DNA from: Candidatus Micrarchaeota archaeon | Lineage (GTDB): Archaea > Micrarchaeota > Micrarchaeia > Burarchaeales > JACRGF01 | NCBI GenBank assembly: GCA_016212395.1 | Contig: JACRGF010000007.1 | Span: forward strand, 1,910-65,909 | Direction: 5' to 3' | DNA length: 64,000 nucleotides | Part shown: positions 34,602-45,123 of the stretch, in pieces | Position numbering within the stretch: position 1 is the first letter of the stretch | How the letters are laid out: each line of letters starts with the position of its first letter | Position numbers and translations under genes: made by a program | The notes under the pieces: model-generated | The model's input: only the letters and a program-made list of their open reading frames with translations | Databases searched by the model: none | Told to the model about the DNA's origin: nothing

Positions 34602-34838
34602 ATGGTGTATGCAGTGATTGATATTTCCGAGCATGCGAACAGGCTTTTGAACATCGTGAAAGCCAAGCATGGCTTGTCTAACAAGTCTGAAGCAATAGAC
34701 TTGGTGATGAACGTTTACGAGGAGGAGGTTCTCGAGCCTGAGCTTCGGCCTGAGTACGTGAAAAAACTCGCGCGCGCGGGAAAAGAGAAGAGCGTTAAAG
34801 TAAAGAATTTCGCGAAAGAGTTCAAGCTAGAGGGATAA
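34602..34838 (+). CDS. Antitoxin of a RelE-type TA pair (archaeal small antitoxin)
   Basis: 78-aa ORF immediately upstream of the RelE-like gene (1-nt gap). The direct repeat ttattaaca-a-ttattaaca lies in its promoter region at about 34572-34590. Confidence 0.6.
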   Translation: MVYAVIDISEHANRLLNIVKAKHGLSNKSEAIDLVMNVYEEEVLEPELRPEYVKKLARAGKEKSVKVKNFAKEFKLEG

Positions 34839-34839
34839 C

Positions 34840-35106
34840 GTGTATTCATTAGAGCTCAAGCAAGGCGTTTACGTAACGTTCAAGAAACTCGAAAAGAAGG
34901 GCAAGAAGAAACTTGAGATAATCAATAACAAGATTCAAGAGATTCTCGAAAATCCAAAACGCTTCAAGCCATTGCGCGCGCCAATGCAGAACCTGCGCAG
35001 GGTGCACATCGACAAATCTTTCGTGCTTGTCTATGAAATAAACGAGCAGGCAAAAACAGTAGTTGTTTTAGACTACGACCACCATGACAACGTCTATAAG
35101 CACTAA
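34840..35106 (+). CDS. RelE/ParE-family toxin
   Basis: 88-aa ORF with a GTG start: KPLRAPMQNLRRVHIDKSFVLVYEINEQAKTVVVLDYDHHDNVYK. Confidence 0.75.
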   Translation: MYSLELKQGVYVTFKKLEKKGKKKLEIINNKIQEILENPKRFKPLRAPMQNLRRVHIDKSFVLVYEINEQAKTVVVLDYDHHDNVYKH

Positions 35107-35108
35107 GC

Positions 35109-38100
35109 CTACCATCCGCCGAGCGTTGCTTGTTTTCCCAGTCCTTTCAACTCGTGCTCGTCCACTCCTAATTCGCTTAGTATTTTCATTACTGACGGGA
35201 GAATTTGGTTTTCAATGTAGTAATTCGGGTCGTAGTCTTTCGCTAATTCCACTACTATTGACCTGTCGCTCACTCGTTCTCCTCCGCTTTTTCCAACAAC
35301 GTAGTCTATTACTGCTCCTTCTTCTATTCGAATTCCTTTTTCTTTCGCCCTGATTGCTGCAGTTACTTCAGGGCTTAGAATTTCATACTTTCCAATCTTC
35401 TTTCTCAACTGCGTGTGTATTACCAGCTTCTCGAGAGGCACTTTCCCTTCCTTCAATTCTTTAATCACTTTCTTGACTATCTCGACTGCTTTTTCCTTGC
35501 TTCCTTTTTTCAGGATGCTTTCAAGCACTGCCGACTGCGTTTCTTTCGCTAAGTCGCTCCAGTCCCTGCGCACCAGTTCGAAACCGCGGATTTTTATTTT
35601 CCCGTCCTCGCGCAACAGCGCATATTTCTTTTTAGCGCCTTTCTCCCCGTCCCCGCTCGCTCCAGTCTTTTTCCCCACAAACACTCCGCGCGGGTAGAAT
35701 GCTTCCAGCTCCAGCTCCATTCCCTTCGGCAGTTCAGCGTTCACTTTCCGCATGAACTCTAACGCTTGCTCGCGTGTTTTTTTTCCCAATTGCAAGAATA
35801 CAGAATCAGTATTATGAAGCAGGATTTGCCCGCACGAGTCAACGAAATTGTGCGTGCCTTCGACGTTCAAGTCATAAACAAAACCATCGTACTCTTGTTC
35901 TTCGATTTGTGCATGCAGTTTGGGAGTGTGTTTCGAGCAAGTGGTGATAATATACGTCTGCTTATCTTGCCTAAACCTCATCGAATATTTTTTTCCAAGC
36001 ATTGGCAGCAGCAGCGTGAGCCCGCAAGCGAGTTGAAGCGATTTTGTTTCCAGCGTGAAGTTGTTTTGCTTGTATTCTTCAGTGTAGCGTGGGTCTTTAG
36101 TGATCGAGCCGTCGCCTTTGAGAAAGTTTTCCAAAATTATTTTCCGGTATTTTTCAGGAACATGAAAAGCAAATCCAGGAAGCTTTTTTCCAGAGCTTTT
36201 CTGCCCGCACAACTGCTTGAAGAAAACCGCTGAAAGCGCGTTCATCATCTGCAGTTTTAGCGTCTTGTCCACGTAAGTCACGCTATTCTTTTTTCCCTTC
36301 ATCGTAGTGTAATTAAGTTGCCTTTGTTTTTTCATTGATTGGATTATGCTTGCCTTCACGTTTGAAAAAAGTGAGTGGTAATCCTTCTTGAGCTGTTCCA
36401 GCCACGCTTTGTCACTTGCAGAAATGCTTGCGCCTAGCCTGCTCGTTGTAGTTTCCGGAGTGGAAGCGCTTCCTTCTGCAATGTAAGCGCCGAGAAGCCT
36501 GCAAAGCGCTTCAAATTCCTTGCTCTCAACTTGGATAAACCGCTTTAGCAGCACTGTGGATTTTTTTCGCATCCAGCCGAAAAACACATGTTCTCCATTC
36601 GGAGTGAGCTGGACTCTGCGCGTTTTGCTTCTATTCTTGTAAACAAATGCATTCTCATATCGTTTAAGCAATTCATAGAAATCTATTTTCTGCATTTGTT
36701 TGAGGGGTGGAATTCGTTCGACTCGCACCATCGCGTTTTCAAGCATTTCTCGAGGTTTTGCTTCGACGAGCTGATTATTTTTTTCTATCATAAACGAGTG
36801 GTCTTCAGTTACCCTCGTTTCCCCGTATTTCTGGCTGACTTTGAAAACCCGCTTGTTCGCCTTGTGCCTAATCGCTTCTTTTACGTTTCCCCACGTTGTT
36901 TTGCCAGTCAGCTGGTCAACGCCAAGCGCTTTAAATCCTTTCAAGCTTGCAACTTCTTTTTCTCCGACTTTTTCAGAGCGCTCGGAATTTTCTTCAAACA
37001 ATTCGCTTATCCTCTTGATTTCAACCATTCCTTGCGGGTTGAGCAGCGTCACGAACCTGTCGCCAGTTACGCTATCCCCATACGTTACCTCAAACCCTTC
37101 TTTCCCTGCTTTTTCAATCACGTCATTAATATAATGCCTGCCCCACGCTGTAATCGCTTCCCCGCACTCGCGCGAGTACCACCTGGCGCGCGCGAAGCGG
37201 AACATTCCGTACACGGAGTTTGAAAGAATTTTCAACGCTTGAGAGCGCGCTTCAAGCATCTTCAATTTCCCTTCGTCCTTGCATTCTCTTATTTCTCCCT
37301 TCAGTTTTTTTCTCCTCTCAACCAACTCCTCGAGCGTGTTTGGAATCAATCCTTTCTTTTTCGAGCAGAACGCGTGCCCGTTCGGCGAAACGAACGCTTC
37401 CTTTTTCGAACAGCACGAGCAATTGAGCGTCGCGTTATCCACGTTGTGCGACGTGATGATTGAAGGGTACAGCGATCGGAAGTCGAACACTGCCAAATTC
37501 TCGTAAATTCCAGGCGTAGGCATTTTCACGAACGCTCCTTCAATTACTGCATCCCTTCTCCCTTCAGCCTCGTCGCCTCCGGGCTTGTTCGGCGCAATCA
37601 TTCCCGCATTGTGCGCCTTGTTTAGCAAAAGCATTTCAACAAGCTGTCCGCTCGTCATTCCCGCCACATCAAACAAAGGAAGCTTCACCAACTTGCACAA
37701 CTCGTACTGTAAAGGCATGATTTTCAACGCGATTTCGCGCGTTGCCTGCGCGTCTTTCAGCGAATACTCCGCTAATTTCGGCAGTTGCTTTTCGTCGTCC
37801 CACATGCGCCAAATCTCGCGTTTTTCCACTTCCTCCTTCCACCCTTCCTTTTCTCCTGCAACCAACTCCGAGTACGCTTCCCCGAGCGTGTACCTGAAGC
37901 CCTTCAACGCTCCTATCATTCCCATAAACCGAATGACGGGGTACAAGTCAACGTGAATCCTCCCCGTAATCTTTGCCGTATTCACCATTCCTCTTCTTCT
38001 CAAAAGAATTCCGCTCCCATCTCTTCCAAAGCTCAAGCTTTTTCCAAGCGCTTTCGCTCGCGCCTTCAAGTAAGAAAAGTCAAACGCTGCTGAATTATAG

Positions 38101-38801
38101 CCCACAAGCAACTCAACGTCTTTTTCTTTCAACAGCCTGCAAAACTCTGCAAGCATCGCCTTCTCGTCCGCAAGAATTTTCACGAACTTCCGTGCGATGG
38201 GCTTCCACGAGAGCACTCCGCTCTCCTCGTCGGCAAAACTCACCATCACCACTGGGTCTATATTCTCGCGTGGCATTCCGCTCGGGTTGTACGTTTCAAT
38301 GTCAAAAGACATCAAGCGAAGGCTTGGAACAACTTCCTTCTCCTCTCCAATGCTCACGACGTTCTTTCCTTTTCTCTTTACTTCATACTCGTTGAACGGC
38401 GTGAGCTTTTTGTCAATCAAGTACCTTCTTCCGAACAAAATGTTGTCTTCATACGTTGCGCCGAACTCGCGCGCCTTCTCGCGCAAAAGCACGACGTGCG
38501 AAGGGTGCACGCACACTGCCCGCAGAACTTTCTTTTTCTCTCCAAGCAACTCCTTTTCAACTTCCTCTATCCTCTCAAACTTCACTTCATTTCCCTGGTT
38601 GTCCTTCACGCTTATTTTTTCAAGCTCTTTCCTCGCGTGCTCTAGTTCTCCCTTCTTGTTCACGTCAACAAAAAAATAGGGCTCGAACTTCTCGTCGTAG
38701 AGCCTGAAGAAACGCTTGCGCTTGAACACTAACCTAATCACTGCCCTTCCTGCCTTCGTAATGTAATCTGCATCAATAAGCATTGCCCGCAAGCTCTTCA
38801 T
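35109..38801 (-). CDS. polB: Family B DNA polymerase (intein-containing precursor, 1230 aa; extein about 809 aa)
   Basis: Exo I FDIETYN, Pol A DFRSLYPSII and Pol B KILSNSVYG are present. Pol C is split as YGD | intein | TDSVF. There is a C-terminal PIP-like KQATLGGW. Confidence 0.95.
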   Translation of the reverse strand: MKSLRAMLIDADYITKAGRAVIRLVFKRKRFFRLYDEKFEPYFFVDVNKKGELEHARKELEKISVKDNQGNEVKFERIEEVEKELLGEKKKVLRAVCVHPSHVVLLREKAREFGATYEDNILFGRRYLIDKKLTPFNEYEVKRKGKNVVSIGEEKEVVPSLRLMSFDIETYNPSGMPRENIDPVVMVSFADEESGVLSWKPIARKFVKILADEKAMLAEFCRLLKEKDVELLVGYNSAAFDFSYLKARAKALGKSLSFGRDGSGILLRRRGMVNTAKITGRIHVDLYPVIRFMGMIGALKGFRYTLGEAYSELVAGEKEGWKEEVEKREIWRMWDDEKQLPKLAEYSLKDAQATREIALKIMPLQYELCKLVKLPLFDVAGMTSGQLVEMLLLNKAHNAGMIAPNKPGGDEAEGRRDAVIEGAFVKMPTPGIYENLAVFDFRSLYPSIITSHNVDNATLNCSCCSKKEAFVSPNGHAFCSKKKGLIPNTLEELVERRKKLKGEIRECKDEGKLKMLEARSQALKILSNSVYGMFRFARARWYSRECGEAITAWGRHYINDVIEKAGKEGFEVTYGDSVTGDRFVTLLNPQGMVEIKRISELFEENSERSEKVGEKEVASLKGFKALGVDQLTGKTTWGNVKEAIRHKANKRVFKVSQKYGETRVTEDHSFMIEKNNQLVEAKPREMLENAMVRVERIPPLKQMQKIDFYELLKRYENAFVYKNRSKTRRVQLTPNGEHVFFGWMRKKSTVLLKRFIQVESKEFEALCRLLGAYIAEGSASTPETTTSRLGASISASDKAWLEQLKKDYHSLFSNVKASIIQSMKKQRQLNYTTMKGKKNSVTYVDKTLKLQMMNALSAVFFKQLCGQKSSGKKLPGFAFHVPEKYRKIILENFLKGDGSITKDPRYTEEYKQNNFTLETKSLQLACGLTLLLPMLGKKYSMRFRQDKQTYIITTCSKHTPKLHAQIEEQEYDGFVYDLNVEGTHNFVDSCGQILLHNTDSVFLQLGKKTREQALEFMRKVNAELPKGMELELEAFYPRGVFVGKKTGASGDGEKGAKKKYALLREDGKIKIRGFELVRRDWSDLAKETQSAVLESILKKGSKEKAVEIVKKVIKELKEGKVPLEKLVIHTQLRKKIGKYEILSPEVTAAIRAKEKGIRIEEGAVIDYVVGKSGGERVSDRSIVVELAKDYDPNYYIENQILPSVMKILSELGVDEHELKGLGKQATLGGW
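35811..37073 (-). mobile_element. Intein (421 aa) with a LAGLIDADG homing-endonuclease domain, inserted in polymerase motif C
   Basis: It begins with Ser (SVTGDRFVTLL) directly after YGD and ends LLHN, followed by a +1 Thr (TDSVF). Internal motifs LLGAYIAEGSAS and ENFLKGDGS are present. Confidence 0.85.
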
Positions 38802-38823
38802 GCTAAAAAAAGCGCTCCCAACG

Positions 38824-38832
38824 CTTAAATAC
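38824..38832 (-). promoter_or_regulatory. TATA box for leaderless polB
   Basis: gtatttaag on the minus strand, centred about 27 nt upstream of the polB ATG (38801). Confidence 0.5.
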
Positions 38833-38839
38833 TATTCCA

Positions 38840-38847
38840 TTAAATAC
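38840..38847 (+). promoter_or_regulatory. TATA box for coiled-coil paralog 1
   Basis: Upstream sequence ccaTTAAATACtcGAAAAGCCa with the ATG 23 nt downstream. It shares the module with 40266 and 41112. Confidence 0.55.
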
Positions 38848-38869
38848 TCGAAAAGCCATAATCTATTCA

Positions 38870-40252
38870 ATGGCTCTGGCAAGCAAGAGCGCTAGTGGGA
38901 GAACGCGCGCCGAAAGCAGTAATCAACCTACTGCGCCTAGAACCCGCGCCGTAACTGTTAGAAACAGGCCAGGCGCGCTCGCCCAAACGCCTCCTCGCGC
39001 TTCCGATGCTTCAACTGCTTCTGCTGGAAGAACAGCAACGAAAAAAACAGTGCAGCCTCGCGCAAGCAGAGTAAAAAAACCAGTCAAAACCACTGCTTCT
39101 GTTTCTTCTTCTAATTCGAGGAAACAGCTTGCTGTAGCGCGCAGGGAGTTGAAAGAAAAAACGCGTGCTGCTGAAGAGTTGTCTTCGCGCTTGGACGCTC
39201 TTTCCGCTTCTGTGGCTGTTTTGACGCAAGCTCGCGCTGAAGCAGTAAGGCAAGCGACGTTCGCTGCTGAAGACGCGTTCGCCGCGCAGGCGAAAAACAA
39301 GCGTTTGGAAGAAAAACTCGCTGTATTAGAAAGCACGAGCAGAAAACTGGAGGACACTGAAAAGCGTTTGAATGAAGCGCTTGCAAAACTTTCTTCAGCT
39401 GCTAGACTCACTCGACTAATGGCTGACGCGAACCGCGCTGCATTGAAGGAAAATGATGGTTTGAAAGCGAAAAATGCGCGTGTTGAAAGCGAAGCAGCCC
39501 GAGATAATGCTTCGTTTGAAAATCTTTGCTCTTCACTCCGCGAAGCAGACAGGGACGCGCAACGTTTGCGCAAGAGCGTGGAAGCGCTCTCGAAAGAACG
39601 CATTGAGCTCAAGAAACAGCAGCTCCGAGCGCTCAGGCAGATTGAATCAATGCGCCACGACCGCCAGGAATTATTGCTGGCGCAAACAAAACTTCGAGCT
39701 GTTGAAAAGCAAGTGGATGATTTGGCTGGAGAATTGACTAAAGCGTGCACTGAACTTCAGGCAAAAACGCGTGCAATGGAACTTCTTGAAAAAAACCTTG
39801 CAAATTCAGAGTCTGAACGACAACGCAGCACTGCAAAGAAAGAAGCAGCAGCTTACCTCGTGGCAGAGTTAAAAACGCAACTTGCCAACGCAAAAGATGA
39901 AATCGCGCGCCTCAAGCAGGCTAATCAAGACCTCGCCACTGAAATAGACGCGTTAAGAGACAGCAGCATGCGCGAAAGAGACGCGCGCGGTTTTACAACC
40001 GTAGAAACCAACAGGGCTTTCGAAGGAAGAATACTCGCGCTCGAACAACAATTGGAAGCTTCAAGAACGCAAGTACAAGAGCTTCTAAGACAACTAAGCA
40101 CTGCACAAACAGGCAAAACACGAACCAGGCAACTGGAACTGCAACTCGAAGAAGCACGCCACCAACTCACGCTCGCCTTGGAACAAAACACTGGACGAGC
40201 AAGTCCATTAACTGCCTCTGCAAAAACAGGCGAACCTGAAAAGCTAGACTAG
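38870..40252 (+). CDS. Coiled-coil protein with a basic Arg/Thr/Ala/Ser-rich N-tail (paralog 1, no TM)
   Basis: 460-aa ORF. About 80 aa of low-complexity basic tail (GRTRAESSNQPTAPRTRAVTVRNRPG...RTATKKTVQPRASRVKKP), followed by long heptad-like Ala/Glu/Leu/Lys/Arg sequence. Confidence 0.6.
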   Translation: MALASKSASGRTRAESSNQPTAPRTRAVTVRNRPGALAQTPPRASDASTASAGRTATKKTVQPRASRVKKPVKTTASVSSSNSRKQLAVARRELKEKTRAAEELSSRLDALSASVAVLTQARAEAVRQATFAAEDAFAAQAKNKRLEEKLAVLESTSRKLEDTEKRLNEALAKLSSAARLTRLMADANRAALKENDGLKAKNARVESEAARDNASFENLCSSLREADRDAQRLRKSVEALSKERIELKKQQLRALRQIESMRHDRQELLLAQTKLRAVEKQVDDLAGELTKACTELQAKTRAMELLEKNLANSESERQRSTAKKEAAAYLVAELKTQLANAKDEIARLKQANQDLATEIDALRDSSMRERDARGFTTVETNRAFEGRILALEQQLEASRTQVQELLRQLSTAQTGKTRTRQLELQLEEARHQLTLALEQNTGRASPLTASAKTGEPEKLD

Positions 40253-40265
40253 CAAACTCGCGCCT

Positions 40266-40274
40266 TTAAATACG
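40266..40274 (+). promoter_or_regulatory. TATA box for coiled-coil paralog 2
   Basis: Upstream sequence ccTTTAAATACgaGAAAAGCCa, with the ATG at 40295. Confidence 0.55.
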
Positions 40275-40294
40275 AGAAAAGCCAACACTTTACT

Positions 40295-41101
40295 ATGCCT
40301 AAGCAAGCAAGAACTCCAGCTAGAACTGGCGGAACACTTGAACAAGCAACTGCCATTGGAATACGCAAACAAGCATCTACCTCCAGAAAGCCTGCTGCAA
40401 CTGGAAGGCAACGTGCTCCAGCGTCCACTGCTTCCCGCGCAACTGCTTCTGCAGAAAGAACTGCTGCTAAAAGAACTGCACGGCCTCGCGCAAGCAAAGC
40501 AAGTGCTCCAGCGTCTTCAGCCTCTCTCGAACAATTCCAAAAAGAGCGCGCTGAGCTCGAACGCAGAATTGAAGACTTGAAAGCAGAAGTTGGCGCTTTA
40601 AGGGAATACATTCGAACTAAAGTTGAAGGCGGGAATGCAGGAGTTAGTGAAATGATTGTTAGAATGAAAGAGGATTTAACACGCGTTTCCAGAGAACTCG
40701 AGCTTTCGAACGCTCGCCTCTCGCTGTTGAATGATGCTTCAAGCAAACTAACTTCAAGGCGTGATGCTGCTGTAGAGAAAGAAGAAACTGCTTTAGCTGA
40801 AGCATCACGCCTGCGCGGACAAGTTTCTTTCTTAACTCAACAACTCGAGGAAGCGCGAGTGCAAATAGCTTTAATGCAGCCTGAACTCGAACAACTGCGC
40901 AAAGCCAGAGAAATAGTTGAAAAACAAGCTGAACTCGAGAAATTCGAGCAGAGCAAGAACAAAGCACGCGCTCTCTTTAACACTGCTGTTTTCCTCGCAA
41001 TACTCTCCGGCTTGGTTTTCGCAGGCTCGGTTATCTACGCTCGCCTTGCAACAATGCACGCGACTCAAAACGCTTGCGAGCAAACGACAAATCCACAATA
41101 A
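40295..41101 (+). CDS. Coiled-coil protein with a basic N-tail and C-terminal TM anchor (paralog 2)
   Basis: 268-aa ORF. Tail ARTPARTGG...RKPAATGRQRAP...RTAAKRTARPRASKASAP and C-terminal helix ALFNTAVFLAILSGLVFAGSVIY. Confidence 0.6.
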   Translation: MPKQARTPARTGGTLEQATAIGIRKQASTSRKPAATGRQRAPASTASRATASAERTAAKRTARPRASKASAPASSASLEQFQKERAELERRIEDLKAEVGALREYIRTKVEGGNAGVSEMIVRMKEDLTRVSRELELSNARLSLLNDASSKLTSRRDAAVEKEETALAEASRLRGQVSFLTQQLEEARVQIALMQPELEQLRKAREIVEKQAELEKFEQSKNKARALFNTAVFLAILSGLVFAGSVIYARLATMHATQNACEQTTNPQ

Positions 41102-41111
41102 AACTACTCCC

Positions 41112-41120
41112 TTTAAATAC
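41112..41120 (+). promoter_or_regulatory. TATA box for coiled-coil paralog 3
   Basis: Upstream sequence ccTTTAAATACttGAAAACGCa, with the ATG at 41143. Confidence 0.55.
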
Positions 41121-41142
41121 TTGAAAACGCATAACTCTACTT

Positions 41143-42666
41143 ATGACTGCACAGCGTGGGGGAAGCCGAACACCCAGAAGGGAAGCTATTCTTAACGCTC
41201 CAGCTCGAGCAAGCAGAACTGCTCGCGCCAGTGCGGAAAGCGTTGAAACCGCGCGTGCCGGGCAATCTAAAACAACTGCAGCTGGTTCTCGCGCTGCTAA
41301 AAAAGCTGCCAAGCCCAAGCCTGTTTCAGTGAAAACAACTCGAACGCGCTTGAACAAGCAAATCGATTTACTCAAACAATCATTGCAAGAAAAGCAAAAG
41401 CAATTGGAAGGCATCAACAAGAGAATTGTTGAAGCGAAGAAAGGAAAGAAAATTCCTGCGCAACTCTCTCGCGAAAAGACTGCTGCAGACGCTGAAATTC
41501 AAGTTATTCAAGGACAATTGACTGTTGCGCGCGAGCAATTAAATGCTACTTACAAGCGAAAGCCGGCAAAAAGCAGGGAACAAACACAGGCACAGCTGAA
41601 AGCGCAATCGCCTTTAACTGTTGTTGCGGTTGATGGAGACTTGCTTGGAGCTGCGAAAACAGAGGCGAAACTCGAACTGTCGCGTGCGAATGGCGAGTTT
41701 GAACGCGTGTCCAAGGAATTAGAAGACGCGCTAAAGCGCGTGGAGAAAGTGGTTGCTGAACGCAACTCGCTCGCTGAAGCGAAAACAGCTGCTGAACTGC
41801 TCATAACTAAAACTGCTCAAGACCTCGAGGCAGTAAGGAAAGAATTAGACGAGTTGAAAGCACGCAAGCCACTTCAAATCGAGAAAATCGTGTTCGACCA
41901 TAATGAATTAACTGAAGCTCGAGCAAGAATTCGGGAATTGGAAGGAAGATTAGATTCTACTGGAGACAGTGATTCAACGTCTGCGCCTTCAACTTCTTCT
42001 AGAACGTCGAAGAAAGCGAGGATTGAACAGCTTGAAGCGCAGTTGCAAGAGAGGGAACAGCGGTTGGAGCGGGCTGAAAAAACGCTTCAAGAAATTTCAT
42101 TGAAAATGAGCGATTTTCTGAAGGGCTTCCGCGGGGACTCTGACAGTGAAAAAACTGAAGTTGTAAACGTTAGAAAGCAAATCTCCACGCTGTTTGCAAT
42201 AATCAGGAGGCAACGCGAGATTATAGAAACATTAAGGAAACGCGTTGAAACTGTTAATGCTGAATTTGCAGAGCTTAAAGCAAAAACCACTCCTCCAAGC
42301 ATATCTGAAGTTGTTGGCTTGAGAAAGCACGCGGGCAGGATGGAGTGGCTTGCCATCGGGCTGTTTATCGCGCTTGGGGCGAGCAACGTTGGCTGGATGG
42401 CTTACAACAAGTTCTACAAGCCTGCAGCGCAAGAGCAGACTCTTGGCTATAACGATGCGTACAGTGATTCAGCGCCTAGTGGTTTGCGTGCAGAACCTGA
42501 AACAGCTCGTGGGGCAGCATACGAATTGTTTGATACTACTCCTGAAGAAGTGAGGCAGACGTTGGCTAACGCAGGCAAAAAAACGTTCAGCATTGTAGGC
42601 GGCGTGCTTTTGCTGGCTGGTGCAGTGTGGTCGTGGCTTCGTTTCAGGGGCAAGCCTTCTCACTAA
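41143..42666 (+). CDS. Coiled-coil protein with a basic N-tail and two C-terminal TM helices (paralog 3)
   Basis: 507-aa ORF. Tail GGSRTPRREA...ARASRTARASAE...SRAAKKAAKPKP. TM helices WLAIGLFIALGASNVGWMAY and FSIVGGVLLLAGAVWSWL. Confidence 0.6.
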   Translation: MTAQRGGSRTPRREAILNAPARASRTARASAESVETARAGQSKTTAAGSRAAKKAAKPKPVSVKTTRTRLNKQIDLLKQSLQEKQKQLEGINKRIVEAKKGKKIPAQLSREKTAADAEIQVIQGQLTVAREQLNATYKRKPAKSREQTQAQLKAQSPLTVVAVDGDLLGAAKTEAKLELSRANGEFERVSKELEDALKRVEKVVAERNSLAEAKTAAELLITKTAQDLEAVRKELDELKARKPLQIEKIVFDHNELTEARARIRELEGRLDSTGDSDSTSAPSTSSRTSKKARIEQLEAQLQEREQRLERAEKTLQEISLKMSDFLKGFRGDSDSEKTEVVNVRKQISTLFAIIRRQREIIETLRKRVETVNAEFAELKAKTTPPSISEVVGLRKHAGRMEWLAIGLFIALGASNVGWMAYNKFYKPAAQEQTLGYNDAYSDSAPSGLRAEPETARGAAYELFDTTPEEVRQTLANAGKKTFSIVGGVLLLAGAVWSWLRFRGKPSH

Positions 42667-42718
42667 AGCTTGTAGAACGAGTTTTCAAGAGTTTTTATTA
42701 CGTGGCTGTTTTTTTGTT

Positions 42719-43300
42719 TCAAACGCCTTTCTTTTTTATTACCGCGATTTCTCCGAGGCTGACTTCTCCTTCTATTGGCTTGTCGTTTATTCCCAAGTCT
42801 TCCATCATTTTCACTCGTTTTTCTTCGAGTTCTTTGCGTTTGCGTTCCCTGCGCGTTGCTTCGCGTGCTTCAGCATCCTTCTCGTTCAATTCGTCGCGGT
42901 ATGATTTTGCTTCTGCTTTCAACTGCTGTATTTCCTTCTCCAGCAAGTTCCTTTCGTCCGTCAATTGCCGAACGTCTCCTTCTACTAGGAATAGTTTGCG
43001 TCGTTTCCGTTCTATTTCGCCTGCTTTTTCGAGTTTTGCTTGAATGTCGCGGATTTCCTTCATCATTTTGCGTTCTGCCTGGAGGTTCGTGGACTCTGTC
43101 GCAATCCTGAACTCTATTTCGTTAAGCGTTCTTTTCAAGCGCCTGTACTCGTCAGTGTTTTCCCTCGACAGTATTTCCTTCAAGGCTTTCGCTTCGTAGT
43201 TCTTGTAGTTGAGCCTCGAATCGAGTTCTTTCGCCTTGCTTATCAGTTCAAACTTTCGTTTTTCCAAAGCGTCTATGCGTTGTTGTGCGTCTGTTTCCAA
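42719..43300 (-). CDS. Archaeal coiled-coil protein (COG1340-like)
   Basis: 193-aa highly charged heptad sequence. TTG start with a GAGGGG Shine-Dalgarno-like element upstream. Confidence 0.55.
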   Translation of the reverse strand: METDAQQRIDALEKRKFELISKAKELDSRLNYKNYEAKALKEILSRENTDEYRRLKRTLNEIEFRIATESTNLQAERKMMKEIRDIQAKLEKAGEIERKRRKLFLVEGDVRQLTDERNLLEKEIQQLKAEAKSYRDELNEKDAEAREATRRERKRKELEEKRVKMMEDLGINDKPIEGEVSLGEIAVIKKKGV

Positions 43301-43666: not shown

Positions 43667-44038
43667 TCACTCGTGTGCTAGTTCGACTAATGGTTGCGGG
43701 ACTTCAAGAATTCTTATTGCTTCAAGCGCGAGCTGCGCGTGTACGTCTTTATTATGTGCTTTCTGCAATATTCTTTTAAGTTCTGCCAGCTCTCTCTGGC
43801 TGCCTTCACTCGTGAGCGTGTAATCTCTAATGTCCAACGAACCTGTTTGCTTGCCTTTGCGGAGTCGCAGGCTAAAGCACGAGGTAGCGCATGAACCAAA
43901 CATGTTCTCGCAAGAGTTGTCTCTTTCAATCCAAAATCGCAGTACGCGCCCTTTCGTTGTTAAACTGACTGCATTTGTCGTTGTTACGCCGCGTCTGACG
44001 TGTACTCCGGACGCAATGCATTGAGCTTGAGCAGCCAT
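43667..44038 (-). CDS. Hypothetical protein
   Basis: The start was trimmed to MAAQAQC at 44038. This is 28 nt from the shared palindromic TATA box and removes the overlap with rtcA. Confidence 0.35.
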   Translation of the reverse strand: MAAQAQCIASGVHVRRGVTTTNAVSLTTKGRVLRFWIERDNSCENMFGSCATSCFSLRLRKGKQTGSLDIRDYTLTSEGSQRELAELKRILQKAHNKDVHAQLALEAIRILEVPQPLVELAHE

Positions 44039-44061
44039 GCTCTTTTTTACGTCTTTTCCAG

Positions 44062-44069
44062 TATTTAAA
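44062..44069. promoter_or_regulatory. Single TATTTAAA/TTTAAATA box equidistant from two divergent leaderless start codons
   Basis: The box centre is about 28 nt from the ATG at 44038 (minus strand) and about 29 nt from the ATG at 44095 (plus strand). Confidence 0.5.
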
Positions 44070-44094
44070 CGTTCGCGTGTTAATCTCGTGTTGT

Positions 44095-45123
44095 ATGCTT
44101 GAAATTGACGGCAGTACGAGTGAGGGTGGAGGGCAGATTCTTCGCGTTGCTTTAGCGCTTGCAAGCGTTTTGAAAACTCCTTTGAAAATTTCAAGCATTC
44201 GCGCGAACAGGAGGAATCCGGGCTTGCAGGCTCAGCATTTGGCTGGCGTGAGAATACTGCAGAAAATATGCAACGCGAAAGTTGAAGGCGCTGAACTGCA
44301 TTCCACTCAATTGTCTTTCGAACCGAACAACATTGCAGGCGGAGTTTATTCTTTTGATGTCGGCACTGCCGGAGCGGTTTCGCTCGTGTTGCAAGCAGTT
44401 CTCCCAGTGCTCGCGTTCGCCCCCCGGAAAACCAGCATCACTCTAACTGGCGGTACGCACGTGAACTGGTCTCCTACTATTGATTATATTGAGAACGTGT
44501 TCAAGCCTCTTGTTGCGAGAACTGGTTTCGATTTTGACTTAAGCGTTGAAAAATACGGTTTTTACCCTAAGGGTGGCGGGAGGGTTGTCGTTGAAGCAAC
44601 TCCAGCGCGAGAGTTGAATGGAATAACTTTGGTGGGCAAGGGCGAGTTGTTGGGAGTAAATGGAATTTCTGTTGCTGGAAGCCTGCCTGAGCACGTTGCA
44701 AAACGCCAACGCGAGGGCGTTTCAAGCGTTTTTTCTTCTGCTGAAGTTCGGTTGGTTAACGCTGAAACTGCTTGCCCTGGAACTGCTGTTACGTTGTGGG
44801 CTGAGTTTGAGAATGGCTTGCTTGGCGCGAGCGCGTTGGGAGAGAAAGGAAAGCCTGCAGAGCAAGTTGGCAGGGAAGCTGGAGAGTTGCTGAAGAAAGA
44901 GTTAAGCTCGAGTGCGTGTGTTGATGTGCATGCTGCTGACCAGTTGATGGTGTTCGCTGCATTAGCAAAAGGCGACACTGTTTACAGAACGTCTGAAGTT
45001 TCAAGCCATGCTAAGACTAACGCGTGGCTTATAGAGAAAATTTGCGGAAGCAAAATCGTTTTAAACGAAGGCGAAAAAACAATTTCTATTAAAGGACTTG
45101 GAATTGAAGGGTTGGAAAAATGA
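44095..45123 (+). CDS. rtcA: RNA 3'-terminal phosphate cyclase
   Basis: Sequence MLEIDGSTSEGGGQILRVALALAS...IRANRRNPGLQAQHL. Confidence 0.9.
   Translation: MLEIDGSTSEGGGQILRVALALASVLKTPLKISSIRANRRNPGLQAQHLAGVRILQKICNAKVEGAELHSTQLSFEPNNIAGGVYSFDVGTAGAVSLVLQAVLPVLAFAPRKTSITLTGGTHVNWSPTIDYIENVFKPLVARTGFDFDLSVEKYGFYPKGGGRVVVEATPARELNGITLVGKGELLGVNGISVAGSLPEHVAKRQREGVSSVFSSAEVRLVNAETACPGTAVTLWAEFENGLLGASALGEKGKPAEQVGREAGELLKKELSSSACVDVHAADQLMVFAALAKGDTVYRTSEVSSHAKTNAWLIEKICGSKIVLNEGEKTISIKGLGIEGLEK

Follow-up and report, generated by a model that had tools for sequence, protein, structure and literature searches.

Three orphan coiled-coil genes with basic tails and graded membrane anchors in a Micrarchaeota genome, tentatively read as a membrane tether

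We analyzed a 64,000-nt stretch of DNA from Candidatus Micrarchaeota archaeon (hereinafter the window, positions 1910-65909 of contig C39 in genome G000, an assembly of 1.37 Mb in 67 contigs with 47% G+C and 89% completeness) and found that three genes arranged head to tail on its plus strand, here denoted P1, P2 and P3, are genuine genes and orphans at the genus level. All three combine a basic, low-complexity N-terminal tail with a helical body, and P2 and P3 additionally carry predicted C-terminal membrane helices. Judging from the gene order of relatives, the trio is located in an inserted block. With due caution, we propose that P2 and P3, together with P1, might tether DNA or RNA to the membrane, a function that we infer from their architecture and consider possible rather than probable. 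The organization of the chromosome and cytoplasm in DPANN-type archaea is almost unknown and most of the lineage-specific genes of these organisms have no assigned role.

Coding signal, architecture and conservation of the trio

The ORF list of the window defines the three open reading frames (ORFs), with coordinates given in the numbering of the window and lengths in amino acids (aa), as follows:

38870-40252, plus strand: P1, 460 aa; tail approximately aa 1-83, heptad-rich helical body aa 84-418, no transmembrane (TM) helix
40295-41101, plus strand: P2, 268 aa; tail aa 1-72, helix 73-111, helix 118-265, one TM helix
41143-42666, plus strand: P3, 507 aa; basic tail aa 1-62, hairpin aa 63-138, segmented helices to aa 382, TM1, loop of about 60 aa, TM2

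A preliminary description of this DNA reported ORFs of 460, 268 and 507 aa, and both the coordinates and the coding signal agree that these are genes. The codon log-likelihood is positive in frame +1 only (0.095 for P1, 0.120 for P2 and 0.198 for P3) and falls between -0.27 and -1.05 in the other five frames. P1 and P2 score the lowest in the neighborhood, where housekeeping genes reach 0.28-0.47, and both are overlapped by long antisense ORFs. The exact sequences of P1 and P2 are absent from a public collection of 15 billion proteins in which P3 and two other proteins of the same contig (CC4 and the 123-aa ORF, see below) are present; the two genes may have been missed or called differently in the public annotation. 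Given the length of the ORFs, the frame-specific codon score, the consensus spacing of the TATA boxes, the heptad periodicity and the AlphaFold2 model of P2, we conclude that all three genes are real.

The basic, low-complexity nature of the N-terminal tails, noted in the preliminary description, is borne out by residue counts and net charge. Residues 1-80 contain 16 K+R against 2 D+E in P1, 16 against 3 in P2 and 19 against 4 in P3 and are rich in S, T, A and P, and the RTRA, PRAS and KKAAKPKP motifs listed there are readable in the translations. The first 70 aa of each trio protein have a net charge of +13 to +14, compared with a genome mean of +1.9 (standard deviation 4.6, 1126 crude ORF models), and only 10 of the 1126 models, the trio included, pass a combined filter for charge and low complexity. 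In the AlphaFold2 models of P2 and P3, the tails are disordered, with a predicted local distance difference test (pLDDT) score of about 33-52.

Similar T/R/A/K/P-rich basic N-terminal tails are present in four other proteins of the same genome (C45:5152-5850, minus strand; C29:12698-13369, plus strand; C63:7515-8531, plus strand; and C47:215-1828, plus strand), of which those on C63 and C47 also contain TM segments. None of the four belongs to a Pfam family above threshold, and the C63 and C47 proteins have no match in 5 relatives. The possibility that all basic-tailed orphans of this genome share one tail module was rejected because few of the 36 tail pairs stand out at the DNA level, namely P1-P2 (z=16), C45-C29 (z=7) and, marginally, P2-P3 (z=5). 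In a relative from the same order (G003, locus L012, 3979-6132), topoisomerase I has a C-terminal K/A/P/T-rich tail of about 45 residues, similar in composition to that of P3, so that at least one genuine DNA enzyme in this group carries such a tail.

The long coiled coils that were expected downstream of the tails are supported by heptad periodicity far above that of shuffled sequences: 29% of the 28-residue windows in P1, 25% in P2 and 17% in P3 exceed the 99th percentile of the shuffles, compared with 1% in the control protein, RtcA. Hydropathy agrees with the proposed gradation of zero, one and two C-terminal TM helices in P1, P2 and P3, respectively, with no TM helix detected in P1 by this method. 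The corresponding features, with Kyte-Doolittle (KD) values where available, are:

40976-41044, plus strand: P2 TM helix, approximately aa 228-250 (hydropathy and AlphaFold2), with 18 residues beyond
41329-41556, plus strand: P3 helical hairpin, aa 63-138, pLDDT 84-95, 71% identity to the orthologue
42346-42402, plus strand: P3 TM1, aa 402-420, KD 1.54
42583-42639, plus strand: P3 TM2, aa 481-499, KD 1.76

In the AlphaFold2 model of P2, the disordered tail (residues 1-72, pLDDT of about 50) is followed by a helix (73-111) and then by a longer helix (118-265) that runs into the TM segment with pLDDT of 86-96. A two-copy complex prediction for P2 residues 70-268 scored 0.18, against a mark of 0.32. 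The P3 model contains the confident hairpin 63-138 and a second hairpin, 285-382. The first of these (aa 60-141) aligns with the hairpins of CHMP4B and Snf7 (Z 11.1), and designed hairpins and the arm of seryl-tRNA synthetase align equally well; the matches from the structure search are generic helical hairpins (Z 10-11.6, below the value of about 13 that helical folds commonly reach). There was no match to Snf7 or PspA in the Pfam scan (E≤0.1), the best ESM Atlas scores were 0.77-0.81 (lead threshold 0.9), and a PDB sequence search returned 0 matches.

None of the three proteins contains an N-terminal hydrophobic segment, the predicted TM helices are C-terminal, and K/R residues precede the TM helix of P2, forming a positively charged flank. 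For these reasons, the rods should be in the cytoplasm, with only about 18 residues of P2 and the loop of about 60 residues of P3 predicted to lie outside the cell. The alternative offered in the preliminary description, a structural role in an apparatus for cell-cell contact, is disfavored by so small an external portion, and we rejected an external cell-contact rod on the predicted topology.

P3 is the only member of the trio for which an orthologue was found. A full HMMER scan of 1.84 billion representative proteins retrieved P3 itself and a single further protein, P0002, which consists of 464 aa, is encoded on a single 13.6-kb contig and is the orthologue of P3 (E 1.8e-91, 46% identity in BLASTP). 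The identity is concentrated in the tail (39/62, 63%), the hairpin (54/76, 71%) and TM1 with its juxtamembrane region (31/42, 74%), compared with 25-45% elsewhere. Thus, the most conserved stretch of P3 is aa 399-440, that is, TM1 plus the juxtamembrane motif that follows it, and the excess of identity in the tail over the rest of the protein indicates that the tail is constrained and not a drifting linker. The tail of P0002 contains 13 K+R and 2 D+E, the extreme N-terminus of P3, MTAQRGG-RTP, is conserved, and both TM helices are retained. The test proposed earlier, namely that homologs conserve the tail and the TM pattern, is therefore passed by P3, with one orthologue that keeps the tail, both TM helices and the TM1 motif. 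A profile built from P3 and P0002 matched those two proteins only, scans of metagenome, genome and viral contigs with P3/P0002 profiles detected no locus, and among the 29 genomes of the order the P3 profile matched G000 alone. Searches of the trio against Pfam, NCBIfam, PHROGs and PADLOC yielded only sub-threshold coiled-coil matches.

Duplicated tail segment and promoters

The three genes had been described as paralogs, which holds for P1 and P2 by virtue of a 63-nt tail segment and does not extend with confidence to P3. The two copies of this segment are:

39012-39074, plus strand: 63-nt tail segment, P1 copy, 79% identical to the P2 copy, in frame, 142 nt from the ATG
40440-40502, plus strand: 63-nt tail segment, P2 copy, in frame, 145 nt from the ATG

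The local alignment of P1 and P2 scores 63, compared with 20.9 ± 2.8 for codon shuffles, and 0 of the 1000 shuffles reach this score. The DNA similarity between P2 and P3 is marginal (2 of 1000 shuffles reach the score) and that between P1 and P3 is not significant (105 of 1000). At the protein level, the best BLASTP match within the trio is between the tails of P1 and P2 (E=0.004, 17/34 identities), phmmer searches of each trio protein against all 9934 ORFs of G000 recovered self-matches only, and no similarity was detectable between the helical bodies of the three proteins. The distance between the tail segments of P1 and P2 (1428 nt) is almost equal to that between their promoters (1426 nt). 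On the evidence of these alignments, promoter and tail of P1 and P2 share common ancestry, and those of P3 may share it as well. P1 and P2 thus provide an apparent example of a promoter and 5' coding sequence duplicated together.

The promoter elements of the trio contain an exact 15-mer, TTAAATACNNGAAAA, that starts at positions 38840, 40266 and 41113:

38837-38855, plus strand: promoter element of P1, CCATTAAATACTCGAAAAG, with its TATA heptamer ending 23 nt upstream of the start codon, which implies a leaderless mRNA
40263-40281, plus strand: promoter element of P2, CCTTTAAATACGAGAAAAG, beginning 11 nt past the P1 stop, with its TATA heptamer ending 22 nt upstream of the start codon
41110-41128, plus strand: promoter element of P3, CCTTTAAATACTTGAAAAC, with its TATA heptamer ending 23 nt upstream of the start codon

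The preliminary description treated this element as a promoter module shared by the three genes. Its TATA heptamer does end 22-23 nt before each ATG; the element is not private to the trio and is for the most part a generic leaderless TATA box. The exact 15-mer occurs 4 times in the window and 6 times in the 1.37-Mb genome; the fourth copy in the window (44054-44068, minus strand) and the two remaining genomic copies precede unrelated genes. The box TTAAATA has 223 sites in the genome, 71 of which have a downstream ATG-initiated ORF of at least 60 aa, and in 37 of these 71 pairs the ATG is located 22-24 nt past the box, which makes this spacing the genome-wide norm. The archaeal TATA box lies at about -26/-27, and this is the spacing expected for leaderless transcripts. 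Among the 39 other promoters of the 22-24-nt TTAAATA type that served as the comparison set, 27 have a T before the box and 22 have a C after it, and a CA(T/A)A element is often found some 17-20 nt downstream of the point where the box begins. GAAAA at the position found in the cluster is present in 4 of these 39 promoters versus 4 of 4 cluster promoters. By sequence comparison, then, the promoter of the trio is the standard promoter of the organism, in a minority variant that is over-represented here, and this local over-representation is consistent with the promoter having been duplicated along with the start of the coding sequence.

Just past the P3 stop, three oligo-T runs form the likely terminator of a three-gene unit:

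42692-42737, plus strand: oligo-T runs T5, T7 and T6

Oligo-T acts as a terminator in archaea. Between 38800 and 42760, these three runs are the only ones of T5 or longer on the plus strand; since none precedes the P3 stop, co-transcription of the trio is possible, and P1, P2 and P3 may be co-transcribed in addition to using their own promoters.

The insertion site and its neighborhood

The trio is flanked by the gene for a family-B DNA polymerase (PolB) on one side and by CC4 on the other. The features of this neighborhood are:

35109-38801, minus strand: PolB, with its ATG at 38801
38823-38831, minus strand: TATA-like box, ending 23 nt before the PolB ATG (38801), in the 68-nt divergent intergenic region
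42719-43300, minus strand: CC4, a 193-aa coiled-coil gene
43667-44041, minus strand: 123/124-aa ORF beyond CC4, without a family match
44077-45123, plus strand: RtcA, beyond the 123/124-aa ORF

A DUF92 membrane protein is also encoded beyond CC4, past RtcA on that side of the window. In two genomes of the same family (G001 and G002), DUF92 and RtcA are followed by a gap of about 200 nt, then by a CC4 homolog and by PolB, which starts 5-7 nt past CC4, with no trio in between; in a genome of the same order (G003), a single 156-aa ORF is located between CC4 and PolB. Because CC4 and PolB are adjacent in G001 and G002, the segment 38802-42718 (3.9 kb) is best described as an insertion, in antisense orientation, into the CC4-PolB pair. 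Judging from this comparison, the block is a lineage-specific insertion that splits a conserved gene pair, and the trio represents a clean example of such an event. We rejected an origin of the block from a mobile element or virus, having seen no integrase, flanking repeat or viral match.

CC4 corresponds to the fourth coiled-coil gene that had been reported on the opposite strand and labeled COG1340-like. Homologs of about 175-220 aa are present in 4 of the 4 relatives searched (including L010 3839-4366, L011 3883-4404 and L012 11458-12117), and they share a conserved C-terminal motif, ...LGEI(A/C)VIKKKG(E/V). Only sub-threshold coiled-coil matches were obtained for CC4 in Pfam and NCBIfam. 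The location of CC4 directly upstream of PolB in G001 and G002 suggests that the two genes form a conserved operon, and by gene order CC4 is ancestrally adjacent to PolB and not part of the inserted block. The TATA-like box in the divergent region is probably the PolB promoter, given the spacing of 22-24 nt that prevails genome-wide.

Several further observations concern the surrounding genes. The 123/124-aa ORF (43667-44068 with its promoter, minus strand) is preceded by the same TTTAAATAC-NN-GAAAAG promoter variant and has no counterpart in G001 and G002, where the equivalent gap measures about 200 nt, so that a second lineage-specific insertion lies beside the first. PolB consists of 1230 aa in the window, compared with 797 aa in G001 and G002 and 808 aa in G003; from a reading of the translation, the extra middle part looks like an intein, which is lacking in the PolB of G001 and G002. 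Two small overlapping ORFs of 78 and 88 aa (34602-35106, plus strand) resemble, in translation, the antitoxin and toxin of a type II system of the RelE/ParE kind. Finally, four DNA sequencing runs from one groundwater study contain the stretch, two of them possibly being its source, and the sequencing-run search listed no RNA run that contains it; matching contigs are identical to the window and provide zero variants usable for a selection test.

Candidate functions and comparison with known systems

The preliminary description also proposed a membrane-anchored tether, and the part of this proposal that stands is the architecture, which fits a cytoplasmic rod with a putative polyanion-binding head and a C-terminal anchor. 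In the model that we tentatively favor, P2 and P3 would reside in the cytoplasmic membrane with the N-terminus inside and the rods projecting inward; the basic tails would bind a polyanion, either nucleoid DNA or RNA/ribosomes, which would thereby be tethered to the membrane by P2 and P3. The C-terminal end of the rod would be free in P1, a one-TM tail anchor in P2 and a TM hairpin in P3, and the soluble P1 might serve as a bridging or competing form. Topology, oligomerization, the ligand of the tails and co-assembly of the trio are inferred here rather than observed.

Several results weigh against a tether of this kind. P3 has no match in 40 relatives, including the two same-family genomes (1 of 41 genomes, G000 only), so that any role would be accessory and not a core function in segregation. 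Homologs of P1 and P2 were not detected in 5.8 billion protein clusters (E≤0.001 for P1 and E≤0.01 for P2), in a search that scored about 8000 candidates sharing the most words and may have missed weak relatives. A Pfam search with the three tails alone (E≤1) retrieved 0 families, and hence no recognized DNA- or RNA-binding domain; the basic tails could equally well bind acidic lipids or a protein partner. Moreover, given the basic N-terminal tails on other orphans of G000, the tail may be a habit of the lineage rather than the mark of a specific function. For P3, AlphaFold2 yields a poor model (mean pLDDT 57) with hairpins in place of one long rod.

The scarcity of relatives could also mean that the trio consists of young orphans without a settled function, with P1 and P2 being recent partial duplicates (promoter plus tail) fused to drifting or new helical sequence and tolerated by the cell, and only P3 clearly constrained. 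P1 and P2 indeed lack detected homologs, have only the promoter and the 63-nt segment in common, score well below the housekeeping neighbors in codon usage (0.095 and 0.120 versus 0.28-0.47), are overlapped by long antisense ORFs and, unlike P3, CC4 and the 123-aa ORF, are missing as exact sequences from the public protein collection. Nevertheless, uninterrupted frames of 460 and 268 aa, strong heptads and an in-frame C-terminal TM helix in P2 are hardly to be expected without selection, the promoters are intact consensus copies, and P3 evolves under module-wise purifying selection, so that we regard this explanation as unlikely, if worth keeping in sight. The same lineage restriction (1 of 41 genomes, 1 of the 29 genomes of the order and 2 of 1.84 billion representative proteins), the position of the genes in an insertion with strong promoters of their own and the similar tails on other orphan proteins of G000 would also fit fast-evolving factors through which a symbiotic DPANN archaeon interacts with its host. 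They might, for instance, belong to a cytoplasmic bridge or secretion route to the host or be its cargo, with the N-terminal tail acting as a recognition or export signal. This speculative scenario appears very improbable: the proteins lack a signal peptide and are predicted to lie for the most part in the cytoplasm, neither sequence nor conserved neighborhood links the trio to any secretion gene, and PHROGs gave 0 matches and PADLOC only weak coiled-coil-arm matches.

A cortical membrane skeleton would make use of the same tail-rod-anchor architecture in a different way. The tails would bind acidic lipid head-groups and the rods would line the cytoplasmic side of the membrane, P1 as a peripheral component and P2 and P3 as integral ones, stiffening or shaping the envelope of a very small cell. 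Polycationic disordered segments are known membrane binders, the gradation from zero to two TM helices suits a layer composed of integral and peripheral members, and strong consensus promoters fit an abundant structural protein. However, the conserved P3 N-terminus, MTAQRGG-RTP, resembles a specific linear motif more than a generic patch of charge, relatives manage without these genes, and nothing in the present data separates lipid binding from nucleic acid binding; we consider a cortical skeleton rather unlikely. The tether of a polyanion to the membrane remains our preferred, if tentative, reading.

Among the known systems to which the trio can be compared, the arms of SMC, Rad50 and LmuB proteins give weak profile matches (14-29 bits in NCBIfam and 12-19 bits in PADLOC). 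These scores fall far below the curated cut-offs of 300-1000 bits and thus reflect generic coiled-coil similarity, and, unlike these proteins, the trio has no ATPase head or hinge. Lys/Ala/Pro-rich basic tails are found in the C-terminal domain of histone H1 and in mycobacterial HupB. The likeness to the trio tails is compositional only, consisting in K/R interspersed with A, P, T and S, low complexity, disorder and KKAAKPKP-type repeats in P3, whereas the trio tails are richer in Arg and Thr, N-terminal and attached to coiled-coil membrane proteins.

SNAREs and golgins are tail-anchored coiled-coil proteins. P2 resembles them in having no signal peptide and a helix that continues from the coiled coil into a single TM segment with 18 residues beyond it, and it is the only member of the trio in which a single TM helix lies within about 40 residues of the C-terminus in the absence of a signal peptide; of the other two members, P1 lacks such a helix altogether and P3 carries a pair. 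The trio gave no match to a SNARE or synaptobrevin profile (Pfam, E≤0.1). ArsA/Get3 (PF02374) was not found in G000, an 89% complete assembly, while 14 of 14 control genomes matched; if this absence holds, tail-anchored proteins such as P2 would be inserted by another route.

The closest functional analogy is with bacterial proteins that connect DNA to the membrane, namely RocS, RacA and RicO. RacA (Bacillus subtilis) is anchored to the membrane by a partner protein. RocS of Streptococcus pneumoniae is reported to link DNA to the membrane by means of a DNA-binding domain at its N-terminus, followed by a coiled coil and, at the C-terminus, a membrane anchor (PMC11500499, PMC13042908), its coiled-coil domain containing a conserved DUF536 region (PMC11500499), and RicO of Staphylococcus aureus is described likewise (bioRxiv 10.64898/2026.03.06.710092). 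The likeness lies in the order of modules, from an N-terminal nucleic-acid-binding end through an oligomerizing coiled coil to a C-terminal membrane end. The trio shares with this type the central coiled coil (heptad test and AlphaFold2 helices) and, in P2 and P3 although not in P1, the C-terminal membrane element. The trio is, however, archaeal and unrelated to these proteins in sequence; DUF536 was not detected among its Pfam matches at E≤0.1, which comprised generic coiled-coil families below the cut-offs. RocS, RacA and RicO bind DNA via a folded winged helix-turn-helix (HTH) domain, whereas the N-terminal ends of the trio are disordered polycationic tails that matched 0 Pfam families and contain no folded HTH; the anchor is an amphipathic helix in RocS and RicO, as opposed to one, two or no integral TM helices in the trio.

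Taking these comparisons one step further, it is conceivable, although we consider the complete scenario rather improbable, that an ultra-small archaeon evolved its own set of nucleoid- or ribosome-membrane tethers. Under this scenario, a module consisting of a promoter and a polycationic tail would have been tandemly duplicated, giving rise to soluble, single-pass and hairpin-anchored rods that would co-assemble under the membrane. If the rods do tether DNA or RNA to the membrane, the trio would be the first such tether proposed for DPANN-type archaea and would indicate that a disordered polycationic tail can substitute for a folded DNA-binding domain; under the complete scenario, it would be an archaeal counterpart of RocS and RicO that is also reminiscent of the chromatin tethers of the inner nuclear membrane.

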